Positions 1,049 through 50,872 of a stretch of DNA of 64,000 nucleotides are shown here, piece after piece (position 1 is the stretch's first letter; each line of letters opens with the position of its first letter). The position numbers were made by a program, and so were the translations under genes. The stretch is from an uncultured Rhodothermales bacterium (GTDB lineage: Bacteria; Bacteroidota; Rhodothermia; Rhodothermales; VXPQ01): assembly GCA_964608315.1 (NCBI GenBank), contig CAZSNF010000006.1:71670-135669 (forward strand), in the 5' to 3' direction. A model generated the notes under the pieces. That model did no database searches. It worked only from the letters and a program-made list of their open reading frames with translations, and was not told the origin of the DNA.

Positions 1049-1921
1049 TCACACCCGAAACACCTTCATCACTTCGTCTCCAAGGTGGTTGATTACCTTG
1101 ACTGCAATGCGGCCGGATTTCGGTTTGTCGAAAGGCCGGGAGGTGTCGCTGCGCAGCGTTGACCAGGCTTCTGCGTTGATTTCGGCCTTGAGGGTTGTTT
1201 TGAGTGATTTGTAGGGATCGCTGGCGCCGAGGAAGTAAGCATGGCGGACGAAGAAGCTTTCCTCATTGTAATCGGTATCGACGAACCAGCAGGCGATGCC
1301 GTCCGTGTCGTCGCTGCGGATTTCGCCGCTGTTCGGATGGAATACATCGACTCCGTTGATCTTGACCTGGATTTGATCGTTTTCTGCGTCGAGAATGTCG
1401 ATGTCCGGTTCGCCGAAGATGACGAATAGATTGCCCTTTCCGGTGTTTTTGAGATCGTCGGCCATGTGCAGGTCGGCGTTCATGCGAGCCTTGAGAACGG
1501 GGACGCGACCCAGTTTGCTGAATTCCGAGGCGTGGGCGTCGTAGTTGAAGGCGCAGGCGATGAGCACGTCGAATCCGGCGTCCGCAGCTTCGCGGGCGGC
1601 TTCCACGAGATCGGGACGGGAAACGGTGCCGAATTCAGGGCCGATGAAGACGCCTGCACGCTTTTCGCCGCTTGCGCCGCCGCCGGGTTCGGCGTAGCGC
1701 CCTTCTGCGCAGACAAGTTCTCCCGGCCAGGGCCTGAGTACGGAAAAGGCGATGTGATCCCCCTTGTGCGCTTGCTGTACGCCAGCGGTTTTGAGATGGT
1801 CGAGGATCGTTTCAGCGAAGCCCTGCTGTACGCCGTATCCGAGTTTGGCTTCGGCGACATGGCCTATGAGTTCGTCGTTTTCGTCTACGCCGAGGATGCG
1901 GTGCGGGGACAGGCTTTCCAC
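1049..1921 (-). CDS. mod: C-terminal domain fragment of the Type III-like DNA methyltransferase (Mod). The frame is actually open up to 2266.
   Basis: The track start is an internal GTG (Val of GPFTVESLSPHR). The ending ...GRIAVKVINHLGDEVMKVFRV is typical of ~1000-aa Mod proteins paired with ~1000-aa Res. It has no plausible own start or RBS. Confidence 0.7.
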   Translation of the reverse strand: MESLSPHRILGVDENDELIGHVAEAKLGYGVQQGFAETILDHLKTAGVQQAHKGDHIAFSVLRPWPGELVCAEGRYAEPGGGASGEKRAGVFIGPEFGTVSRPDLVEAAREAADAGFDVLIACAFNYDAHASEFSKLGRVPVLKARMNADLHMADDLKNTGKGNLFVIFGEPDIDILDAENDQIQVKINGVDVFHPNSGEIRSDDTDGIACWFVDTDYNEESFFVRHAYFLGASDPYKSLKTTLKAEINAEAWSTLRSDTSRPFDKPKSGRIAVKVINHLGDEVMKVFRV

Positions 1922-2187
1922 TGTGAACGGGCCTGCGACGCGGACGGTTTTATTGTCCTTGTACGGCTTGTCGTAGAGGTATTCGTACTCGGCTTTGGCG
2001 GCGATGGAAGCGTCAATTTCTCGTTGCCGGGCAAGGCGGGCTTCCCAAAAACGTTCGAGCGCTTGTTTGGCCTCGTCGCTCCAGTTGACGTCCGGTTCAC
2101 GCGGGACTTCCCATTCGAGCAGGGCGTTGCATGGCGCCGTTTCGCCGGAGGGCAGCGTTTCTGTCTCTTCAGGCGGCGCGGCGAAGT

Positions 2188-4011
2188 TTATGCGGCGACC
2201 CGCCCGTCCGCCCGCGGCGACGAGAAATGCTGTGTGTGTGTGTGGGGGGGGGGGGTATGTGATTTTTTAGGCAATCCCTTTGTCGCGTCCTGTTGCATTA
2301 TGGCGTTCAGCGCGTCCAGCGCCGCTTCCACGGCCGGTTGCTTTTGCTCCCAGATTACGTCGATTTCGGCGTTGTTGGCGATGGCCTTGAGCGTGATGTG
2401 GGGGACGCGCTCGTACACGAAACCCTGGCGGATGTCATTGTACGTGGGCGCTTCCGAGGGGGCCTTGCGGGCGAGTTCGGCTTCCTTGATTTGGCCGTCG
2501 CGGCTGTCCGCGAGCAGATACCAGGGATAGCGGGCGCCCATGATGCGGGCGCGGGCCAGCGCGAGGGCGACGCGAGAGGTGTCGATGGTGATCCAGCGGC
2601 GGCCCCATTGCTCGGCGACGTACGCGGTGGTGCCGGAGCCGCAGGTGGGGTCGAGGACGAGGTCGCCGGGGTCGGTAGTCATGAGGATGCAGCGCTGGAT
2701 GACCTTTGTACTGGTTTCGACGACATACCTCTTATCAGTTGCACCAGCAGTATCGTTCCAATTCGTTGTCATAGGATAAGCAGTAAAATCATGAAAATAT
2801 CGCTTGTAGGATAATTGATTTCCTGTTTTCACTAACCTCCCAGCCTTACCAAGGTTATCAAGACCCTTTTTGTCAGTCTTCCAACACCAGCGTCCATCAG
2901 AATTGAAAATTTCTTCTTGAAATGTATAACCTTTTAGATCAGCCGGATTGGGTGTTCTTGTGCCACGTATATGATCTAATGCAAAGACTCTTTCATTGTT
3001 AGGAATGAGGGTTGGATTGTAGCGTTCTTGCTGGCTAATACGCCGATAAGTAGTTCCATCAGGCGATTCCACGTTTGTGTAACCTGTAGCTCCGGTCTGC
3101 CCAATGATTTTTTCGAGCCATGCAGGGCGATATTTTGCTTCATTTTTGGATTTAGCATACCAAATTAAATAATCGGATGCCGTTGACATAAGTTTGGATG
3201 TTTGTGCCGTGGCTTTCATAAATGTGATCAAACCGACAAAATTCTCCTCCCCAAACACCTCATCCATCAGCGCCCGCACCCGGTGTACGTTTTCGTCCCC
3301 GATCTGCACGAAAACCGACCCGCTCTCCGTCAATAAGTCCCGGGCCACGGTCAACCGGTCTCGTAAATACGTCAGGTACGAATGAATTCCGTCCCGCCAC
3401 GTATCCCGGAATGCTTTCACTTGCTCCGGCTCGCGGGTGATGTGCTCGGCCTTGCCGTCCTTGACGTCGCGGCTGGTCGTGGACCACTGGAAGTTGGAGT
3501 TGAATTTAATGCCGTACGGCGGGTCGATGTAGATGCACTGCACCTTGCCGCGCAGCCCTTCCCGCTCGGCCAGCGACGCCATTACTTGCAACGAATCGCC
3601 AAGAATCATCCGGTTGGACCAGTTGGCGTCATGCTGGTAGAATTCGGTGCGGGCATCCTCGTTCGGCAAGCCGTTGAAGTCTGCGAACAGGTCCGCCTGC
3701 GCGCTTGCTTCGTCCTCCCCGGTCTCTTTGCTCCGCCGCCGCAAATCGTCGATCAGCGCCTTCGGATGCACTTTCTCCTGAATGAACAGCGGCGGGGCTT
3801 GCACGATCATATCCGACCAGTCCTGCGCATCCTTGCCCCGCCAGACGAGTTGCGGGTCCAGGTCGCGGTTGCGCCGTTCGTACCCCACCGGGACGGGATT
3901 GCGGTCGTCGTCTTCCAGCATGCCTTGATATTCCGCCGTGGGAATATTCTTGCGGGCCGCCTCGTCGTGCTTGAGGGTTTTGATCTTTCGGGTCGATTTC
4001 CGTTTCGGCAT
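2188..4011 (-). CDS. mod: Type III-like site-specific DNA methyltransferase (Mod), N-terminal catalytic + TRD portion (beta-class N6A/N4C)
   Basis: Motif IV IYIDPPYGIKFNSNF lies upstream of motif I VLDPTCGSGTTAYVAEQ (order IV..TRD..I). The frame ends 22 codons after the C12/(CA)n tract (..SHTPPPHTHTQHF..). Confidence 0.85.
   Translation of the reverse strand: MPKRKSTRKIKTLKHDEAARKNIPTAEYQGMLEDDDRNPVPVGYERRNRDLDPQLVWRGKDAQDWSDMIVQAPPLFIQEKVHPKALIDDLRRRSKETGEDEASAQADLFADFNGLPNEDARTEFYQHDANWSNRMILGDSLQVMASLAEREGLRGKVQCIYIDPPYGIKFNSNFQWSTTSRDVKDGKAEHITREPEQVKAFRDTWRDGIHSYLTYLRDRLTVARDLLTESGSVFVQIGDENVHRVRALMDEVFGEENFVGLITFMKATAQTSKLMSTASDYLIWYAKSKNEAKYRPAWLEKIIGQTGATGYTNVESPDGTTYRRISQQERYNPTLIPNNERVFALDHIRGTRTPNPADLKGYTFQEEIFNSDGRWCWKTDKKGLDNLGKAGRLVKTGNQLSYKRYFHDFTAYPMTTNWNDTAGATDKRYVVETSTKVIQRCILMTTDPGDLVLDPTCGSGTTAYVAEQWGRRWITIDTSRVALALARARIMGARYPWYLLADSRDGQIKEAELARKAPSEAPTYNDIRQGFVYERVPHITLKAIANNAEIDVIWEQKQPAVEAALDALNAIMQQDATKGLPKKSHTPPPHTHTQHFSSPRADGRVAA
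2231..2255. repeat. Simple-sequence tract (TG)6T + G12 on the plus strand, i.e. C12(AC)6A on the mod coding strand
   Basis: Read directly: 2231-2243 tgtgtgtgtgtgt, 2244-2255 gggggggggggg. It lies at the junction of the two mod reading frames. Confidence 0.95.
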
Positions 4012-4383
4012 CTATGCAGAGTCCTCGCTGGTGGCCTTCAACAAATTTTGCAATGCCGGGAGCAGTTGCGGGATTGCATCCTGAATGATAGTCCAAATAA
4101 TATGGTCATTGAGGCCCAAGTATCCATGAGCCAGGCGATTTCTCGTTCCCACGATCGCGTACCAAGGGATATCCGGATACTCCTCACGCACCTTGTCCGG
4201 GATATGGGTGGCTGCTTCCCCGATCAACTCGAGATTTCGCAGCGTGGCGTCATACGTGAGTCCGTCCGCGACGAAGGCGTCCTGATCCATATCATGCGTA
4301 TAGGATAACACCTTTTCGCAGAATTCAATCATGTCTCCCACATAGAAACGCCATTCCCGCGCTTCGTGCCTTGTATCAGACAT
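4012..4383 (-). CDS. HEPN-domain (DUF86) toxin of a HEPN/MNT pair
   Basis: Rx4H motif in GTRNRLAHGYLGLN. 123 aa. It overlaps the MNT gene by 8 nt, and its stop abuts the mod ATG (TAGATG). Confidence 0.85.
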   Translation of the reverse strand: MSDTRHEAREWRFYVGDMIEFCEKVLSYTHDMDQDAFVADGLTYDATLRNLELIGEAATHIPDKVREEYPDIPWYAIVGTRNRLAHGYLGLNDHIIWTIIQDAIPQLLPALQNLLKATSEDSA

Positions 4384-4666
4384 TGATTACCTCCCGCTCC
4401 ACATAGGGGCGTATTTCGATCCGCAGGTTTTGGTTTATTGCCATATCCACTGGGCGCCCCAACAAATCTTCGAGATAGCCCTGCGCTCCGAAATAACGCT
4501 GCCAATCGGGAGACCTGTCAAACTGCACCAGAATATCAATGTCGCTATCGTCTGTTGCCTGATTACGGGCAAAGGAGCCGAACAGGGCGAGCCGGGTGAC
4601 GCCGTAGCGTTGGGCAAGGGTCGCCTTGTGCGTTCGGAGCAATCTGAGCACATCGTCTCGCGTCAT
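4376..4666 (-). CDS. MNT minimal nucleotidyltransferase antitoxin
   Basis: GSxxR..DxD signature LFGSFARNQATDDSDIDILV. 96 aa. ATGA overlap with the res stop. Confidence 0.85.
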   Translation of the reverse strand: MTRDDVLRLLRTHKATLAQRYGVTRLALFGSFARNQATDDSDIDILVQFDRSPDWQRYFGAQGYLEDLLGRPVDMAINQNLRIEIRPYVEREVINV

Positions 4667-7600
4667 TGAATTCCCTCGTCGGATGTCAAAACAGGCAGGG
4701 CGATTTCTTGCTCGATCATGCGGTTGAAGCGGGCTTCGATCTTGTCCTCAAAATCCGAAAGGATATCGTAAGCGTCGGTGAATTCGGCAAAAGCCCAACG
4801 GCCGAAACCGCCATGACTGTTTACTCCGGGAATCCAGCAGGTTTCCATCGTGGCCTTCTTTTCCTTGGCGTCTTCCCGTCGATACCCCTTGATTTCCACG
4901 ATCAGGTGCAGCAAGTCATCGTGGCTTCGCCCGTCGTCGACGAGCACGATAAAGTCCGGGACGTACGTACGGATTTCGGAGCCGTACCGATAGGGTACTT
5001 TCAATCCGAGGTTGCGATTCTTGACGTAAGCCCTGACTTGCGGATGGGATTCCGCCACCCGGCAAAATTCCGCTTCCCAGTCGCTGTCGAGGACAGCCCA
5101 ATTGATGTGGCAACGGCGAGAATCGGTTTCGTACCGACAGGCGCTGGACGTATTGAAATGAACGTGCGCGGTGGAGCCGACGGGATTGTAGGGGTCCAGC
5201 ACGGCCTTGACGGGTCGATCGCCCATTTCCGCTCGCGTAATGCCCGCCGTGATGCGTTCGCAGGCCATGTCCGCCAGTTCCTGGTACATGAGTTGCGCCG
5301 GCCAGGTCCCGCCCTTGCAGACGAGGCATTCGTCGAGCCATTGCCTGGAGATGCGCTTGAGTTGGCCGAAGAGGTGCGCTTTGGGCGTTTCGTTCGGGTC
5401 CCGCCATTTCGTATAAAGCAGCCGCCGGGTCAGGTTATAAATCAGGGCGTTGCGTCGAAGCGCTTGCGTATGCCCCAGATCAAGGTTCACGCCTTCCCCG
5501 ATAATTCCCTGATTTCTCGTAATGGACGGTCCGATCATATCCGGCGTGAGTTCCAGCACCGAATCGGCGTTGAACTTGGCCCGGAGTTGTTCCTCTGGCA
5601 ATTCGATGCGATATCCCGCTACCCGGGGGAAGCGAATTTCCAGCGCATCTCGTTCGGGCCGCATTGCTTTTACCTGCACGGTTTCGCGAGGGGGGCGCGG
5701 CGGCACCGCCACAGGCTTTGCCGTAAAGTCGAAGGGAATGCCCAGCACGTCGGCGTACTCGACATTGAATAGTCCCTTTTCGTTCAGTTCGTAGGACTGC
5801 CTGCGCAGCGCTCGCCCGACCACCTGTTCGCAAAGCAACTGGGTTCCAAAGGCGCGTACGCCCAGCACATGGCTGACCGTATTCGCGTCCCATCCTTCCG
5901 TAAGCATCGAGACCGATACGACGCAGCGAATCGAAGCCCCCAGCCGCCCGGGTTTCCCCACGGTGTTCATGACTTCGCGGAGCAGGTCCTGATCGCTGAT
6001 GTGCTCGGCCTGACGCCGGTCGCCGGTGCGTTCGATAATTTCTCTGCGAAACCGCTCGATTTCGTTAGCGGCCATCTTGCGGAAATTTCTGTCCAGCGCA
6101 TCCCCGGACTCCAGTTGTACGCTGTCGATCAATAAAGTCCGGGGCGGGGAATACGGGTTGCCGTCCTCGTCGAAATTGCGAAACAACGCCAGCCGTCCGT
6201 TTTCGAACGTCCTGTTGCCGTCGCCTTGTTCTCGATGGAACCCAGAGATGTAATCGTAGACCAGCTTGGAGGTTGAAGTATTGTTGCAGACCACAATGAA
6301 GCAGGGCGGCACTCGAATGCCTGCTTCATTCCAGGCGTTGAATTCTTTCTCGTAATGACCGTACAGGGCTTCCAGCGCGGTCTGGAGTTCTGTGGGCAGG
6401 CTCAGGGGGTCCAGCGCCTTGCCCGCGCCCCGTTTCTTTTTCGGCATATGGGGGCGTATATGCTCCCACAGATTGCGAAATTTCGGCATCTCGCCGCCGG
6501 GAATATTGTCGGCTACTGGCACCCGGGGAAGTTTCACGATGCCGCATTCGATGGCGTCCATCAGGGAAAAATCGCTCATCGCCCAGGGAAACAGGGTACC
6601 CTCTGCATAACCCGATCCGCGCAGGAAGAACGGGGTTGCCGAAAGGTCTATCACGCGTCGAACGCCCAGTTTTTTGTTCGCTTTTTCAATGCCCGAAATC
6701 CACAACCGGGCGGCTTCGGCATTCTTTTGGGCTTCTTTGCGGTCGTCGCCCTTGAGGATGTCCTCCTCTTTTTCTTCGTCCGGCCTTTCGCGATAGCAAT
6801 GGTGCGCTTCGTCGTTGAGAACCAGAATATTTTTCATGCCCATGAGTTCGGGCATGACGCGTTGCAGCATTTGCCCCTCGGTTTCAAGGGTGTTCAGCTC
6901 CGCGCCCCGTCCCTGAAGCAGGGCGCGCGCCCCCTTGGACAGTTCGAGGCGTTCGCGCTGCTTGAAAGCGTGATAATTGGTGATGACAATTTTGGCCTTC
7001 CCCAGATCGGGAAGCATATCGTTCGGGACCAGCTCGCGGCGTTGATAGTAGCTATCCGGATCGTTCGGCTGCAACACGCGCAGCCGGTCCTTGATGGTAA
7101 TGCCTGGCGTAATCACCAGAAAACCCTGCGTGAATCTGCGGCTCTGCGGGCGACGGACCGCATTGATGGTCTGCCAGGCGATCAACATGGCCATGACCAT
7201 CGTTTTTCCTGCGCCGGTCGCCAATTTAAGCGCAAGGCGGGACAATTCCGGATTGGCGTCGCGGCTCGCGTCCTCAAGGTGCTTGAGGAACCCTTTTGCT
7301 TCCTGTCCCTTGCCTGGCGCTACTTCGGTAAGCCAAATGACGGTTTCTACCGCCTCGATCTGGCAAAAGAAGGGACGAATGTCACTGAAGCGATGCGTTC
7401 GCCAATGCCGGAGCAGGCGGGCGGTTTCCGGCGTTACGCCCTGCTGGTCGGGAGGGAGGTCGCGCCACCGATCTACTTGCCTGCGTACGCCATTGATAAT
7501 ATCCTTCAGGTATTGCTGGTTTTTGGTTTCCAGCTTCCTCGCCGCTTCGTCGAACACCAGCGAAGATTGTTTTTCAGAGGCGCCCTTTCGTTTTCTGGGT

Positions 7601-7746
7601 TTTGGGATGGGCGTGATAAAATCAGCGGACCTGCGCTGCTCGACGATACGCTGGGTTGGCTGGCCGTCCGGGTCCAATTCCCAATGGCGATTGGGGCGCT
7701 CGTAGGGCGAATTCAGAACAGGTTGCTCGAAAAACAGATCGCTCAA
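4663..7746 (-). CDS. res: Type III-like restriction subunit Res (SF2 helicase + C-terminal PD-(D/E)xK nuclease)
   Basis: Walker A LATGAGKTMVMAM, DEAH box LVLNDEAHHCY, C-terminal PDFIVLV...EIKG. The N-terminus FFEQPVLNSPYERPNRHWELD is typical of this family. TTG start in the track. Confidence 0.85.
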   Translation of the reverse strand: MSDLFFEQPVLNSPYERPNRHWELDPDGQPTQRIVEQRRSADFITPIPKPRKRKGASEKQSSLVFDEAARKLETKNQQYLKDIINGVRRQVDRWRDLPPDQQGVTPETARLLRHWRTHRFSDIRPFFCQIEAVETVIWLTEVAPGKGQEAKGFLKHLEDASRDANPELSRLALKLATGAGKTMVMAMLIAWQTINAVRRPQSRRFTQGFLVITPGITIKDRLRVLQPNDPDSYYQRRELVPNDMLPDLGKAKIVITNYHAFKQRERLELSKGARALLQGRGAELNTLETEGQMLQRVMPELMGMKNILVLNDEAHHCYRERPDEEKEEDILKGDDRKEAQKNAEAARLWISGIEKANKKLGVRRVIDLSATPFFLRGSGYAEGTLFPWAMSDFSLMDAIECGIVKLPRVPVADNIPGGEMPKFRNLWEHIRPHMPKKKRGAGKALDPLSLPTELQTALEALYGHYEKEFNAWNEAGIRVPPCFIVVCNNTSTSKLVYDYISGFHREQGDGNRTFENGRLALFRNFDEDGNPYSPPRTLLIDSVQLESGDALDRNFRKMAANEIERFRREIIERTGDRRQAEHISDQDLLREVMNTVGKPGRLGASIRCVVSVSMLTEGWDANTVSHVLGVRAFGTQLLCEQVVGRALRRQSYELNEKGLFNVEYADVLGIPFDFTAKPVAVPPRPPRETVQVKAMRPERDALEIRFPRVAGYRIELPEEQLRAKFNADSVLELTPDMIGPSITRNQGIIGEGVNLDLGHTQALRRNALIYNLTRRLLYTKWRDPNETPKAHLFGQLKRISRQWLDECLVCKGGTWPAQLMYQELADMACERITAGITRAEMGDRPVKAVLDPYNPVGSTAHVHFNTSSACRYETDSRRCHINWAVLDSDWEAEFCRVAESHPQVRAYVKNRNLGLKVPYRYGSEIRTYVPDFIVLVDDGRSHDDLLHLIVEIKGYRREDAKEKKATMETCWIPGVNSHGGFGRWAFAEFTDAYDILSDFEDKIEARFNRMIEQEIALPVLTSDEGIQ

Positions 7747-8116: not shown

Positions 8117-8207
8117 TGGCGGAGAGGGAGGGATTCGAACCCTCGATACGGGGTCGCCGTATACTCCCTTAGCAGGGGAGCGCCTTCAGCCACTCGGCCA
8201 CCTCTCC
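8117..8207 (-). tRNA. tRNA-Ser (anticodon GCU), CCA encoded
   Basis: Minus strand GGAGAGGTGGCCGAGTGGCTGAAGGCGCTCCCCTGCTAAGGGAG-long variable arm-GAGGGTTCGAATCCCTCCCTCTCCGCCA. The anticodon loop CTGCTAA was folded by eye. Confidence 0.9.
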
Positions 8208-45295: not shown

Positions 45296-45727
45296 GTGAA
45301 ACTGTTCGTACTCAATGGCCCCAACCTGAACCTGCTCGGTACGCGCGAACCGGAAACCTACGGGACGACCACGCTGGCCGACATGCAGGACGCTCTGTGC
45401 GCCTTGTTTCCCGAGGTGGATTTCCGGTTTGTCCAGAGCAATCACGAGGGGCGCCTGATTGATGCGTTGCATGAGGCGGCCCGGGAGGGCGCGGCGGGCG
45501 TGGCGTTTAATCCCGGCGCCTTTACGCATACGTCCGTCGCGCTGCGGGACGCCGTGGCGGCGATAGACGTACCCGTTATCGAGGTGCATTTGTCGAATGT
45601 GCACGCCCGCGAGTCTTTTCGGCGTCGGTCCATGATCGCCGCCGTATCGGCCGGGCAGATCGTGGGTCTGGGCGCGAAAGGCTACGAACTGGCCGTACGC
45701 TACTTTCTGGACAGCGCCGGGGCGTAA
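45296..45727 (+). CDS. aroQ: Type II 3-dehydroquinate dehydratase (GTG start, GGAGGA upstream)
   Basis: KLFVLNGPNLNLLGTREPETYG ... IEVHLSNVHARE. Confidence 0.95.
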   Translation: MKLFVLNGPNLNLLGTREPETYGTTTLADMQDALCALFPEVDFRFVQSNHEGRLIDALHEAAREGAAGVAFNPGAFTHTSVALRDAVAAIDVPVIEVHLSNVHARESFRRRSMIAAVSAGQIVGLGAKGYELAVRYFLDSAGA

Positions 45728-47463
45728 TGCGCATGAGCGACGTTTCTCGCGAACCCGCACCCCCCCCCGATTCGGAAGATCGGAAAGGTTCTGTCGGGCA
45801 AGACGATGCGGCGGGATCGCCGCGCAGGAATGCGGCCGGCGTGGTGGCGGGCGGCATTCTTGCAAGTCGCCTCGCGGGATTCGTGCGGGAGCGGGTGGTT
45901 GCCCATTTTTTTGGACTGGGCGCGTACGCGGATGTTTTTCAGGTAGCGTTCCGGGGGCCGAACCTGTTGCAGAACCTGCTGGGCGAGGGCACGATTTCGG
46001 CGGCGTTCATTCCCATCTATTCGAAAATGATCGCGCAGGGGCGCGAACGGGAAGCCGGGCGGTTCGCCGGGGCGATTTTCGGGTTGTTGCTGGCGCTTAC
46101 TGCGCTACTGAGTCTGGCGGGCATACTGCTGGCGGAACCTGTCGTAACAGTTTTTGCGGCAGGCTTCCGGGCCGACGCCGCCGCCGTGGCCGCGGGGGAA
46201 CTGTCGGTCAACCGATTCGAACTAGCCGTGCGGGCCGTGCGCATCATCTTTCCCATGACCGGCTTGCTGGTGCTGGCGGCGTGGTGTCTGGGCGTACTGA
46301 ATAGTCACCGGCGGTTTTTTCTGCCGTACTTTGCCCCGGCGCTATGGAATGCAGCAATCATCGGCGCGCTGATTGTCGGGGCGAGGATGACGCTGGGTTC
46401 GGCGGAAGGCGTTCGGACCGATCTGCTGTTCGCTGCTTTCTACGGGGCTTTTCTGGGCGGTTTCCTGCAATTCGCAGTGCAGGCTCCTCTGGTGTTTCGG
46501 CTGCTTCGCGGCTTCCGTCTTTCCTTGTCTGCGAAGGTGGCGGGGGTTCGGGAAGCCCTGCGCGCCTTCGGACCGGCTGTCGCCGGGCGCGGCGTCTACC
46601 AGGTATCGTCCTATCTTGACCTTTTGCTGGCTTCCTGCCTTGCGGCCGGCGCCGTGTCAGCGTTGCGGCCGGCGCAGATGTTGTACGTCCTGCCGATAAG
46701 TCTTTTCGGGATGTCTGTGGCGGCGTCGGAATTGCCCGAGCTTTCGCGTTTCGGAAAGGGGAAATCCGAAGCCTTCGCGCAGCGCCTGGTTCGGTCTCTT
46801 CGCCAGATGCTCTTTCTGACGATTCCCACGTGTATCGGGTACCTTGCGTTCGGCCTGCTTATCGTGGGGGCGCTTTTTCGCACCGGGGAGTTTGGTTCCG
46901 AGGACGCCTGGCTGGTTTATCTGGTGCTGGCCGGGTATTCGCTGGGACTGCTGGCCACGGCCATGTCTCGCCTGCTGCAAAATGCGTTCTATGCGCGCAA
47001 GAATACGCGCACCCCGGCTCGCATCGCTGTCTTGCGCGTGGTCGTGTCTACGATTGCGGCTGTTCCCGCCATGCTTCTGCTGGACGGCGTCGCCGTGGGC
47101 GCGGTTGCGGGTGCGTCGCTGGAAACGCGTACGTTGTATCTGGGCAGTCTGGGGCTGGCCGCGGGCGCGACCGTCGGAGCATGGGTTGAATTATGGCGTC
47201 TCCAACGGTCGCTCGGCGTCTTGCTCCCCGCTTTTCGTTTGCCCTGGACGGGCGTACGCCGCATGACGGCGACGGCCCTGATTGCGGCGGCGCCGGCCGG
47301 GGCCGTATGGTTTTTGTTGCCTCGCCTGCCTGTTGCGATCGAAGCGTTGATCGTGGTATCGATATATGCGGCAGGGTATCTGGCTATCGCCTATGCGCAG
47401 CGCGTCCCCGAAATGGATCGTCTGTCCAGGCGGTTCGTTCGCCGCGGCAAGCGGGACGGGTAA
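45727..47463 (+). CDS. murJ: Lipid II flippase MurJ
   Basis: SRLAGFVRERVVAHFFG...FRGPNLLQNLLGEGTISAAFIP, multi-TM. Confidence 0.9.
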   Translation: MRMSDVSREPAPPPDSEDRKGSVGQDDAAGSPRRNAAGVVAGGILASRLAGFVRERVVAHFFGLGAYADVFQVAFRGPNLLQNLLGEGTISAAFIPIYSKMIAQGREREAGRFAGAIFGLLLALTALLSLAGILLAEPVVTVFAAGFRADAAAVAAGELSVNRFELAVRAVRIIFPMTGLLVLAAWCLGVLNSHRRFFLPYFAPALWNAAIIGALIVGARMTLGSAEGVRTDLLFAAFYGAFLGGFLQFAVQAPLVFRLLRGFRLSLSAKVAGVREALRAFGPAVAGRGVYQVSSYLDLLLASCLAAGAVSALRPAQMLYVLPISLFGMSVAASELPELSRFGKGKSEAFAQRLVRSLRQMLFLTIPTCIGYLAFGLLIVGALFRTGEFGSEDAWLVYLVLAGYSLGLLATAMSRLLQNAFYARKNTRTPARIAVLRVVVSTIAAVPAMLLLDGVAVGAVAGASLETRTLYLGSLGLAAGATVGAWVELWRLQRSLGVLLPAFRLPWTGVRRMTATALIAAAPAGAVWFLLPRLPVAIEALIVVSIYAAGYLAIAYAQRVPEMDRLSRRFVRRGKRDG

Positions 47464-48184: not shown

Positions 48185-50872
48185 ATGGCCAGACGTTCCG
48201 TTTCTTGTCTTTCGTCCGTTTTCTGTCTCGCCTTGTTGCTCGCTGTCTCGCCAGCGTTCGGACAATCCCTGGGCGCGCTTGAAACCATGCAGCCGCCGCT
48301 CGCCGGGGATGGTCCTGCCTTGTCGGCAGACGACGAGAGGCGCATCATTCATGTAACGGATCGGCTGGCCCGCATGCCGGAGTCCATCGCGGCCTTGCGG
48401 GCGTACCATGAAGCCAGAGCGCTGGGTTTGTTGCCCGTCGCCAAGGCTGCGGTGCCGTACGATATCGGCGACGAGAAAGAGTTCAATGTGCTGAAGAATC
48501 TTCTATCAGACAATGCACGCTGGGAAACGCGCGCGTTCACGCTGGCGGCTGAAAGCGATATCGCCAATATCTGGGTTGCGAACGATCAGCAGGGCGTCGC
48601 TACGGACGAGCAACTTGCGGAGATCAATACTTATGTGCTTTCCGAAACTCCCGAAGGTTCCTGGCGGCCGGAGCGGGGCATCATAGCGAACAGCCACGAG
48701 GTATTCGGCGATCCGCCGAATGCTCCCGATGCGGACGGCAAGGTCGACATACTGTTTTTCGATATCGAGGAGGGCGACGACGACTGCTGCATACTCGGCT
48801 TCGTTACGGCGTTAGACCTCGACCCCAATCCTGATTCCGGCGAGGGGAATGCGGCCAATATTGTTTACATGGATCTGCCCGACGGCATACAATTACAAGG
48901 GGGGGGCGCCCTTAGGCTGTCAGGCACCCTGGCGCACGAGTACCAGCACCTCATTCATTATGCTTATCAGGATGTTAACTTCAACGGTCCCTGCTCCACC
49001 TGCGAACTTACCTTCGTCAACGAAGGCTTGTCGGAGTGGTCTGAATTGCTGCACGGATTTCCCCTCCGGAACATTCGGTATCTGAGCGATCCGAACGCAT
49101 ATGGCGTTCGGTTGTTTACCTGGCGTCACGACGGAACGATTCGACAAGTTGAAAACGATTACGAGCGATCCGGGCTTTTTACTACCTACATTGCGGATCG
49201 CATCGGTCGGGAATCTACCGGATCCATCGTACGCGCAAAATGCCCCGTGGGCGCCACTTTTTGCCCGATAGGTTCGTGGCTTAAAGGCGCAGCAGGGTAC
49301 GAATTTGTGTTGGGCGAGCATAATCTTTCGCTCGCGGGTATCGTAGCGGATTTTCACGCCGCAAATTTTATCAACGACGCCAGCGTAGGCGCGAAATATG
49401 CTTACCAGGCTCCCGCCAGGCAAGACATAAAAGCGGTTTCTACCGTGAGCGTGGACGCCACAACGGATATTTCTCCTTTCGAGAGGACGGTGAATGTGTC
49501 GAGCGGCGCGGTAGAGTATTTGACTTGGAAGGACGTGACGAATCTTTCGCTGAAAATCCGGGATTTTGGAAGTACAGATGGCGGCGGGCCAGACGAGGGC
49601 GGGTCGGAGAGCACCCGGATCGGAATGGTCGAAGGCGCAAGCAGTCGTCGGGACAATTTGTCGTTGCGGTTGTTCGCCAAAACGAAAACGGGGGCGAAGC
49701 AGGTCATAGACCTGGACTCCGCTACGCAAGATCATGTCGTGAACGGAGAATATGAGCAAGTTACCCTGATCGTCGTGAACGCGCAGGTGGTGGAGAGTTT
49801 CGATGCTCCGTCCATCAAACTGCATATTACCGGCAGATGGGGGAATAGCCCTGAGTTCGATGTGACCACCGTGTCGTACGAAAGGGGCCAGAACGAGGAC
49901 CATATATACCTTGACGGGGACGAAGAGGATGTATTGGCTCAGATTTTTCCGGTGCCCGCCGGAGCGCGTCTGTCAAATGTCTTTGTAGCGCCGGTGTATG
50001 ATAACCAGTTTCGCAATGGAATGGCGCCCGCCGGAGCGCCTCGGGATTTTACCCTGAAGGTGTGGGACGTGCAATACAGACAAGTGGTATATGAAGAAGA
50101 CGATACAACGGATCCGCCCACGCCTCTTCGCAGTTGGCGGGTTCCGTTTCCCGGCCGCGAACTTTATAGCCAGGACATGGACGAATCTGCAGGCGCGTCG
50201 CATATAAACTTTCAGGGTGCTGGCGAGCCCAGCGCGTATTCGTTCCTGAGGGTCAATCTTCCGTTGGACGAACAGGCGCTTTCTGCGCTTCCGGATTCTA
50301 TTTTCATTGGCTTGGCCAACAAGGGGGTTGATAATAATTACCTTGTCTCCACGACGGCCCGAAGCGTTCCGGGCCATGCGCAGGATACGCTGGCCTACTG
50401 GTATGGAACCATCGAAAACGAAGATGGCGACGAGGTTACGGGCTGGCGTCCCATGGCGAGTCTTCGGCTATGCCGCAAGGAGGACCGCAACTGCGATACG
50501 AACGACGACGAAGACGGGTGGTTTTCACTGGCGGGCCAGGTGTTTCCCATGCGCGCCCGGTTTCGTACCCCCCTGGTTACGTCCGCGGAAGATCCTCTGG
50601 AACTTCCCTCTGGCGTGACGCTGGCGCAGAACTATCCGAATCCGTTCAATCCAGCCACCTCGATTACCTGGACGCAACCGGCTTCCGCTCCGGTTCGGCT
50701 ATCCGTGTACAATCTGCTGGGACAGAAGGTGGCCATGCCGGTGGATGGCCTGCGCCCGGCGGGCAAACATGAAGTGCGCCTGGACGGTTCCGGGTGGGCC
50801 AGCGGCGTGTACGTCTATGTGCTCGAAACAGGGGTGCATATAGCTACCCGGCGCATGGTGCTGCTGAAATAA
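48185..50872 (+). CDS. Secreted HExxH metalloprotease-like protein with a T9SS C-terminal sorting domain
   Basis: Signal peptide; TLAHEYQHLIHY; C-terminal LAQNYPNPFNPATSITW...SGVYVYVLETG...MVLLK. Confidence 0.8.
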   Translation: MARRSVSCLSSVFCLALLLAVSPAFGQSLGALETMQPPLAGDGPALSADDERRIIHVTDRLARMPESIAALRAYHEARALGLLPVAKAAVPYDIGDEKEFNVLKNLLSDNARWETRAFTLAAESDIANIWVANDQQGVATDEQLAEINTYVLSETPEGSWRPERGIIANSHEVFGDPPNAPDADGKVDILFFDIEEGDDDCCILGFVTALDLDPNPDSGEGNAANIVYMDLPDGIQLQGGGALRLSGTLAHEYQHLIHYAYQDVNFNGPCSTCELTFVNEGLSEWSELLHGFPLRNIRYLSDPNAYGVRLFTWRHDGTIRQVENDYERSGLFTTYIADRIGRESTGSIVRAKCPVGATFCPIGSWLKGAAGYEFVLGEHNLSLAGIVADFHAANFINDASVGAKYAYQAPARQDIKAVSTVSVDATTDISPFERTVNVSSGAVEYLTWKDVTNLSLKIRDFGSTDGGGPDEGGSESTRIGMVEGASSRRDNLSLRLFAKTKTGAKQVIDLDSATQDHVVNGEYEQVTLIVVNAQVVESFDAPSIKLHITGRWGNSPEFDVTTVSYERGQNEDHIYLDGDEEDVLAQIFPVPAGARLSNVFVAPVYDNQFRNGMAPAGAPRDFTLKVWDVQYRQVVYEEDDTTDPPTPLRSWRVPFPGRELYSQDMDESAGASHINFQGAGEPSAYSFLRVNLPLDEQALSALPDSIFIGLANKGVDNNYLVSTTARSVPGHAQDTLAYWYGTIENEDGDEVTGWRPMASLRLCRKEDRNCDTNDDEDGWFSLAGQVFPMRARFRTPLVTSAEDPLELPSGVTLAQNYPNPFNPATSITWTQPASAPVRLSVYNLLGQKVAMPVDGLRPAGKHEVRLDGSGWASGVYVYVLETGVHIATRRMVLLK

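Follow-up and report, generated by a model that had tools for sequence, protein, structure and literature searches.

The 64,000-nucleotide (nt) stretch of contig CAZSNF010000006.1 analysed here (hereafter, the window) belongs to an uncultured, probably sponge-associated Rhodothermales bacterium, the link to sponges being suggested by the metagenome label alone. It encodes, on its minus strand, a Type III-like restriction-modification (R-M) operon whose methyltransferase gene, mod, is interrupted by a compound simple-sequence repeat (SSR). The mechanism that most likely accounts for this arrangement is reversible slipped-strand switching, which would bring the C-terminal half of Mod in and out of frame. 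Such a process would comprise three steps: (i) slipped-strand mispairing at replication would make the tract longer or shorter by one C or by a single CA unit; (ii) this change would put the 357-codon C-terminal half in or out of frame with the module formed by the methyltransferase and its target-recognition domain (TRD); and (iii) the population would alternate reversibly between a full-length Mod of 987 amino acids (aa), the ON state, and a truncated Mod of 606-641 aa, corresponding to two OFF frames. The window, as assembled, would be OFF and a single step away from ON. Type III restriction subunits (Res) are inactive without Mod, and their ATP-dependent cleavage takes place ~25-27 bp from asymmetric, hemimethylated sites. 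Since the activity of a Type III Res depends on its forming a complex with Mod, the switch should toggle at least restriction and, probably, methylation too.

The repeat and the two open reading frames (ORFs) that meet at it are the following:

2231..2255, minus strand: compound simple-sequence repeat and frameshift point of mod, formed by C12 (2255..2244) and (AC)6A (2243..2231)
2188..4011, minus strand: N-terminal frame of mod as assembled, 607 aa, with a complete beta-class N6/N4 methyltransferase module (PF01555 at residues 157-484)
1049..2266, minus strand: second frame of mod, which holds the conserved C-terminal half of 357 codons, beginning with LLEWEVPRE at 2122 and ending with the stop at 1049 (profile positions 616-983)

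On the minus strand, the tract stands in the context AAAAAATCACATA-C12-(AC)6A-GCATTTCTCG, for which C11(CA)7 is an alternative notation. The frame that starts with the ATG at 4011 crosses it as KKSHTPPPHTHTQHF and ends with ..KKSHTPPPHTHTQHFSSPRADGRVAA* at 2188, the out-of-frame tail of this fragment being its last ~14 codons past the tract. The second frame, open over 2266..1049, encodes YPPPPHTHTAFLVAAGG...LLEWEVPRE...; its earliest ATG, GTG or TTG is the GTG at 1921, which encodes the Val of TVESL in GPFTVESL and lies 67 codons inside the conserved C-terminal region. On re-reading the sequence, the tract and both frames proved to be just as the original prediction had described them, and its remark that the start of the second ORF is merely an internal GTG was borne out. 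Its frame arithmetic, according to which one C more or one CA less fuses Mod into a single protein, also holds: in silico, the addition of one C gives an ORF of 987 aa and the removal of one CA gives an ORF of 986 aa, either of them without an internal stop. In the NCBI annotation, the split gene appears as two separate ORFs, with fragments of 607 aa and 290 aa.

Elsewhere, the 64 kb contain no homopolymer or dinucleotide repeat as long as those of the tract (the next homopolymers are C9 and G8), and a 20-nt core of its pattern occurred in none of 100 dinucleotide-preserving shuffles, in agreement with the earlier claim that a tract of this kind is unlikely by chance. With C12 and 6.5-7 CA units, its length surpasses the slippage thresholds used as criteria in a published survey, namely, a mononucleotide run of at least 9 nt and at least five dinucleotide units (PMC5909438). 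Two long frames of the same strand abut at the tract, which is the sole such case among the window homopolymers of at least 7 nt, and no other window homopolymer breaks a gene; in consequence, there is no sign of systematic assembly indel error. Within the gene, the tract is situated at codon ~587 of 987, that is, at ~60% of the ORF, in an inter-domain linker downstream of the catalytic/TRD module.

A comparison of the tract among related strains had been suggested as a check of the phase-variation candidate, and its outcome favours the candidate. The comparison set consisted of eight syntenic sponge-metagenome assemblies, drawn from the KELL22-1 and NGUY21-1 sets and from two NCBI metagenome-assembled genomes (MAGs). 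A repeat is present at exactly the same site of mod in all eight, with lengths, and even motifs, that differ among them:

Window: C12(AC)6A, out of frame
L001 (NGUY21-1 metagenome): (CA)10, in frame
L094 (NCBI MAG GCA_022825385.1): (CA)13, out of frame
L091 (NCBI MAG GCA_022820225.1): (CA)16, out of frame
L087 (KELL22-1, SAMN22237330): (CA)17, out of frame
L090 (KELL22-1, SAMN22237334): (CA)17, out of frame
L092 (KELL22-1, SAMN22237335): (CA)17, tract as in L090, with the contig ending ~40 nt past the tract
L095 (KELL22-1, SAMN22237329): (CA)19, out of frame
L096 (KELL22-1, SAMN22237340): (GA)14G(TG)11, out of frame

Strains hence differ in tract length, and both in-frame and out-of-frame states are found among them: seven of the eight relatives are out of frame, with both alternative frames represented, and L001 carries the sole in-frame allele. 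In each out-of-frame allele tested, the gain or loss of one repeat unit gives an ORF of 985-991 aa. Furthermore, two pairs of assemblies are identical except for the tract: L087 and L094 (0 substitutions in 9,835 bp) and L090 and L091 (0 substitutions in 15,607 bp), the single gap of each alignment being the tract itself.

In the single-run assemblies L083-L086, L088, L089 and L093, all the short contigs that carry the operon come to an end ~140-520 nt inside mod, well short of the TRD and the repeat. These breaks are consistent with the coexistence, in the same samples, of strains that diverge in mod.

Apart from the tract, no allele carries any lesion. The C-terminal half measures 357 codons in each of six alleles, and its ratio of nonsynonymous to synonymous substitution rates (dN/dS, or omega) amounts to 0.06-0.13 at dS values of up to 0.65, comparisons between all-OFF alleles included; the ratio is ~0.25 for the N-terminal half and ~0.5 for the linker. 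Judging from these values, both halves of mod are under purifying selection. The region that distinguishes the alleles from one another is the following:

2662..3114, minus strand: approximate target-recognition domain, residues ~300-450, delimited from the identity profile between alleles

This block is 12-40% identical between alleles of the sponge clade, as against 85-100% for its flanks, and between L087 and L090 it is unalignable, with 97.6% identity elsewhere. Multiple alleles are, therefore, defined by a central TRD on a conserved backbone. The pattern is one of TRD replacement, and the specificities of these alleles therefore probably differ. Swaps of this kind imply frequent recombinational exchange of TRDs in this symbiont clade.

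In comparative work on phase-variable mod genes, variable tracts together with TRD allelism are treated as diagnostic (PMC5909438). As far as sequence can tell, the locus described here bears the signature of a phase-variable mod, with the following elements: (i) a repeat above the slippage threshold; (ii) polymorphism, of length and of motif, confined to the repeat; (iii) a majority of out-of-frame states, each of them one step from ON; (iv) purifying selection on the two halves; and (v) TRD allelism. Slippage at an appreciable, reversible rate within populations, a need for the C-terminal half in Mod or Res function and any effect of the switch on gene expression are inferences that go beyond this signature.

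On the evidence of their homologues, the two ORFs are one mod gene, as had been proposed. This conclusion follows from the collinearity of single homologues of ~930 aa and from the fact that one profile extends across both halves: the PADLOC 'Type III methyltransferase' profile (MTase_III PDLC03632, 983 positions; E-value of the match to Mod, 1e-237) is covered at positions 73-612 by the N-terminal fragment and at positions 616-983 by the C-terminal fragment. Among the best 120 homologues listed, nearly all are single proteins of ~930 aa, and most of them show 67-75% identity and end-to-end coverage of the repaired query. A natural split at the position of the tract was seen in none of the ~280 homologues examined. 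The idea that this locus naturally consists of two genes was ruled out by the full coverage of the single-protein homologues and by the one profile over both fragments.

The catalytic motifs of the methyltransferase are located as follows:

3525..3514, minus strand: motif IV of mod, DPPY, residues 163-166
2652..2626, minus strand: motif I of mod, DPTCGSGTT, residues 454-462

The order of elements in Mod (motif IV, TRD, motif I) corresponds to the beta class. Mod can, in this way, be assigned to the Type III modification subunits, which are beta-class N6-adenine/N4-cytosine methyltransferases with the TRD between the motifs. Indeed, the top solved-structure matches of the N-terminal fragment are the Type III Mods 6k0w, 4zcf (EcoP15I) and 7dsu. 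The C-terminal half gave no match in Pfam, NCBIfam or the PDB (the latter searched by profile), and the AlphaFold2 model of the repaired Mod has a mean predicted local distance difference test score of 46.7.

Other members of the Mod family show peculiarities of their own. In L003 (Dehalococcoidia MAG OZ247429.1, 11756-11765), the distant mod homologue has a C10 run, kept in frame, in the variable loop that comes next, just after EWEIPRD, which makes it a candidate for a second, independent repeat switch in the family. The mod homologues of L015 (Candidatus Multivorans sp.) and L081 (a Rhodanobacteraceae MAG) have a single in-frame stop, at codons 466 and 479, respectively, past which the same frame runs on to the normal end; the genomes are unrelated and the positions similar. 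These stops could correspond to (i) a nonsense pseudogene; (ii) recoding; or (iii) a sequencing error.

The repeat is contained in a segment that most homologues lack:

2123..2286, minus strand: optional Mod linker of about 55 aa, recognised by homologue alignment, absent from most homologues and containing the repeat

The linker connects the methylase module to the conserved C-terminal half. Homologues without any repeat conserve the part of it that follows the tract, AFLVAAGGRAGRRINF..LPSGETAP.NA, and the segment FLVAAGGR.GRRI.F..LPSGETAP.NALLEWEVPRE recurs, free of repeats, in the distant homologues P0058, P0284 and L098-L100. Since the same protein segment is found repeat-free in distant homologues, the repeat arose within a stretch of the optional linker that is poorly conserved and evidently tolerates runs of Pro or His-Thr. 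That the ~55-aa linker could be a mobile element, such as a miniature inverted-repeat transposable element, was also considered and rejected, in view of the fact that the translated segment is kept at the protein level in distant homologues.

No comparable dinucleotide tract exists in 80 species-level homologues (GTDB species representatives) and 80 metagenome loci; the repeat would, thus, be a clade-specific acquisition and not a feature of the family. The scan of GTDB species representatives, whose best match listed was 69% identical and whose matches belonged to unrelated phyla, served as an SSR census. A scan of JGI metagenomes with the exact DNA pattern of the linker gave no match, and the protein-based metagenome scan recovered family members with the optional linker, all of them without the repeat.

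A number of points weigh against the proposed switch. The length of the C run in the window is a short-read metagenome consensus of a 12-nt homopolymer, and the OFF call may be a consensus homopolymer error; hence, the earlier statement that the gene was caught OFF stands insofar as the assembled frame is broken, while the state itself depends on the consensus length of the homopolymer. The differences between L087 and L094 and between L090 and L091 span different pipelines (ENA re-assembly versus NCBI MAG) and could reflect repeat collapse, a limitation of short-read assemblies that has been noted in the literature (PMC5909438). The variation in tract length is variation between assemblies, at one consensus per assembly. 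Besides, eight of the nine sequences, the window included, are OFF: under a three-frame drift, at least eight of nine would be expected with a P of about 0.14, for samples that are non-independent. This predominance fits random drift over three frames, as it does a gene whose intact form is seldom required. As regards the position of the tract, the repeats of the classic phasevarion mods are 5'-proximal and the one described here lies downstream of the catalytic module. The OFF product, with 606-641 aa, has the size of a whole EcoP15I-type Mod and, because the tract is downstream of a complete catalytic/TRD module, OFF may not abolish methylation.

Taken to its full extent, the concern about the consensus leads to an explanation in which the true run is C13 (or C10), the gene is intact here and the repeat is a tolerated low-complexity linker without switching. 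Library PCR, sequencing and assembly are all prone to errors at long G/C homopolymers. The disagreement in tract length between assemblies of the same strains, the documented repeat collapse, the in-frame state of the relative L001 and the poor conservation of the linker (omega ~0.5) all speak for this explanation, which is nevertheless improbable: the out-of-frame state of seven of the eight relatives occurs at dinucleotide tracts of 26-51 nt, easily spanned by 150-nt reads, and the presence of relatives in both OFF frames indicates that loss of frame is not confined to the C run. It is also opposed by the lack of any other frame-disrupting homopolymer in the window, and even a truly ON copy would remain an unstable repeat in a coding frame. 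Less probable still is that mod is a decaying pseudogene, inactivated by the expansion of the repeat and now being lost, with the variation as neutral noise. The predominance of out-of-frame sequences (eight of nine) and the NCBI annotation as two separate ORFs agree with decay, and sponge symbionts are rich in defence genes (PMC9531527), some of which are perhaps redundant. Nevertheless, the six alleles, diverged to dS 0.35-0.65, have accumulated no further stops or indels; the C-terminal half, past the frameshift, keeps its low omega and its length; res, mntA and hepT, the other genes of the operon, are intact throughout (in L001, a DUF1828 gene occupies the position of the mntA-hepT pair); and TRD replacement is ongoing between near-identical backbones. 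Altogether, the selection data strongly oppose pseudogene decay.

Expression could also be independent of the frame, either through a split Mod assembled from two polypeptides, the second produced by re-initiation at the TTG or CTG of LLEWEV, or through slippage of the RNA polymerase or the ribosome on the repeat, which would restore the frame in some of the products, so that the tract would tune the amount or form of Mod instead of turning it off. In L087, L090 and L091, the C-terminal half has TTG as its first conserved codon, the upstream ORF overlaps that codon by 26 nt in one OFF frame, and the strong constraint on the C-terminal half in all-OFF alleles requires that it be translated by some route. 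Bacteria are known to show transcriptional slippage on long homopolymers, chiefly on A/T runs; to our knowledge, slippage rescue on (CA)n tracts has not been reported. The codon in question is CTG, and not TTG, in the window and in L001; the first conventional start of the window is the GTG 67 codons into the conserved region; and none of the ~280 homologues is naturally split there. For these reasons, frame-independent expression is improbable. A variant of the switch itself deserves mention here, although it is rather unlikely: the switch could act at the domain level, with the OFF state keeping an active stand-alone methyltransferase of ~600 aa and losing the C-terminal half, a possible coupler of Mod to Res; restriction would then cease and protective or regulatory methylation would persist. 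The predominance of OFF is in keeping with this variant, as is the strong constraint under which the two halves evolve.

The R-M genes form a tight cluster in the order res-mntA-hepT-mod, with res first, downstream of atpG and a tRNA-Ser gene. Together with mod, the cluster and its edge comprise:

4663..7746, minus strand: res, a Type III-like restriction subunit of 1027 aa, with a superfamily 2 (SF2) helicase (ResIII 128-373) and a C-terminal endonuclease (RE_endonuc 885-964)
4376..4666, minus strand: mntA-like nucleotidyltransferase antitoxin gene, whose ATG overlaps the res stop (ATGA)
4012..4383, minus strand: hepT-like RNase toxin gene, whose TAG stop directly adjoins the mod ATG
8117..8207, minus strand: tRNA-Ser(GCT), between atpG and res, at the upstream edge of the R-M island, with the same placement after atpG in relatives

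The adjacent Res combines the motifs of an SF2 helicase with a PD-(D/E)XK-type endonuclease domain at its C terminus. It matches the NCBIfam BPTD_3080 family restriction endonuclease with 1359 bits (cut-off 800), its matches to PADLOC REase_III are marginal (E ~2e-4), and it has no sequence-level PDB match. The order of the genes departs from the canonical Type III order of mod then res, which is typical and not strictly defining, and relatives keep the same order from res to mod. The nested MntA/HepT pair may stabilise the R-M island or serve as a second defence module. In L001, the position of this toxin-antitoxin pair (window 4012-4666) is occupied by a DUF1828 gene, which in other relatives is found farther downstream. 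Downstream of mod, L087 (13389-18377) and L090 (13377-20010) carry a DUF3800 fragment, Peptidase_M78, DUF1828, NucS_C and a Schlafen/AlbA_2-HATPase protein, and L001 carries three paralogous ORFs with faint HSDR_N matches. The presence of such defence-type genes in relatives indicates that the R-M operon sits in a variable defence island beside the tRNA-Ser.

Among known systems, the closest parallels are the phasevarion mods, such as modA of Haemophilus influenzae and Neisseria, modH of Helicobacter pylori and the GA[n] mod of Mycoplasma (Atack et al., 2018, PMC5909438). The shared traits are (i) a repeat inside the gene, the length of which determines in which frame a beta-class N6-adenine Mod is read; (ii) strain-variable tracts; (iii) several TRD alleles on a conserved backbone; and (iv) a Mod-dependent partner Res (PMC5909438). 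The locus of the window differs in that the tract lies at ~60% of the ORF, after the methylase/TRD module, and OFF leaves a Mod-sized protein; in its compound nature (a C run plus CA) and the turnover of motifs among relatives, either (CA)n or (GA)n(TG)n; in the extra conserved C-terminal half (357 aa) of a Mod of ~990 aa; and in the position of res, which comes first, with a toxin-antitoxin pair nested before mod. Furthermore, the host is an uncultured sponge-associated Rhodothermales bacterium and not a host-adapted pathogen.

With regard to EcoP15I (PDB 4ZCF) and the Mods 6K0W and 7DSU, residues ~119-466 of Mod align to residues 80-450 of the EcoP15I Mod (E 1e-21 with a family profile), and both systems have the order motif IV, TRD, motif I, as well as a Res with an SF2 helicase and a C-terminal endonuclease domain. 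But, in the window, Mod has a large extra C-terminal region without a match in solved structures, Res lacks a sequence-level PDB match and is filed under the BPTD_3080 family, with only marginal REase_III matches, and the genes run from res to mod instead of from mod to res. A further parallel is the Type IIG gene cj0031 of Campylobacter jejuni, in which a G/C homopolymer inside an R-M ORF is reported to cause ON/OFF frameshifts that change site-specific methylation (PMC4889913); cj0031 encodes a single polypeptide, whereas the system described here has two subunits.

The original prediction knew of no description of such switching in this kind of organism. In a limited literature search, no report of a repeat-switched Type III mod in sponge symbionts or Rhodothermales was found. 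As a class, SSR-bearing Type III mods are widespread: 17.4% of the Type III mods in REBASE carry repeats, some of them in environmental species, and the survey itself asked why repeat-bearing mods exist in such species (PMC5909438). The novelty, hence, is in the host and the position of the tract, not in the mechanism.

Concerning the host, the best named matches of the lysyl-tRNA synthetase encoded in the window belong to Rhodothermaceae/Rhodothermales, with 73-79% identity, and proteins identical or near-identical to those of the window occur in assemblies of sequencing runs. The window also encodes components related to type IX secretion, namely, SprA and a Por_Secre_tail protein. Its second-longest homopolymer, a C9 at 45760-45768 (plus strand), is situated 33 nt past the annotated ATG of a murJ-like ORF (45727..47463); it is in frame (PPP), upstream of the Pfam MurJ match that starts at residue 58, and it may belong to an N-terminal extension that the protein can do without, or else precede the true start. 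A G8 at 48899-48906 (plus strand) is in frame in an 895-aa ORF (48185..50872) with a type IX secretion C-terminal sorting domain. Surface proteins are typical targets of phase variation; with 8 nt, this run is below the usual slippage threshold.

Phase-variable Type III methyltransferases have been studied almost wholly in host-adapted pathogens. The locus analysed here provides a concrete case, backed by cross-strain comparison, in an uncultured lineage of marine-sponge symbionts; phage pressure and defence-gene enrichment are prominent in sponge communities (PMC9531527). It offers several natural alleles, which vary in TRD and tract state and are directly testable with public read sets. In MAGs, annotation will wrongly present loci of this type as pairs of genes or as pseudogenes. 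The mid-gene tract is, moreover, a natural experiment on the role of the large C-terminal half in a widespread family of ~930-aa Mods. If the switch did act at the domain level, it would amount to 'defence off, epigenome on', unlike the all-or-nothing switching of classic phasevarions.

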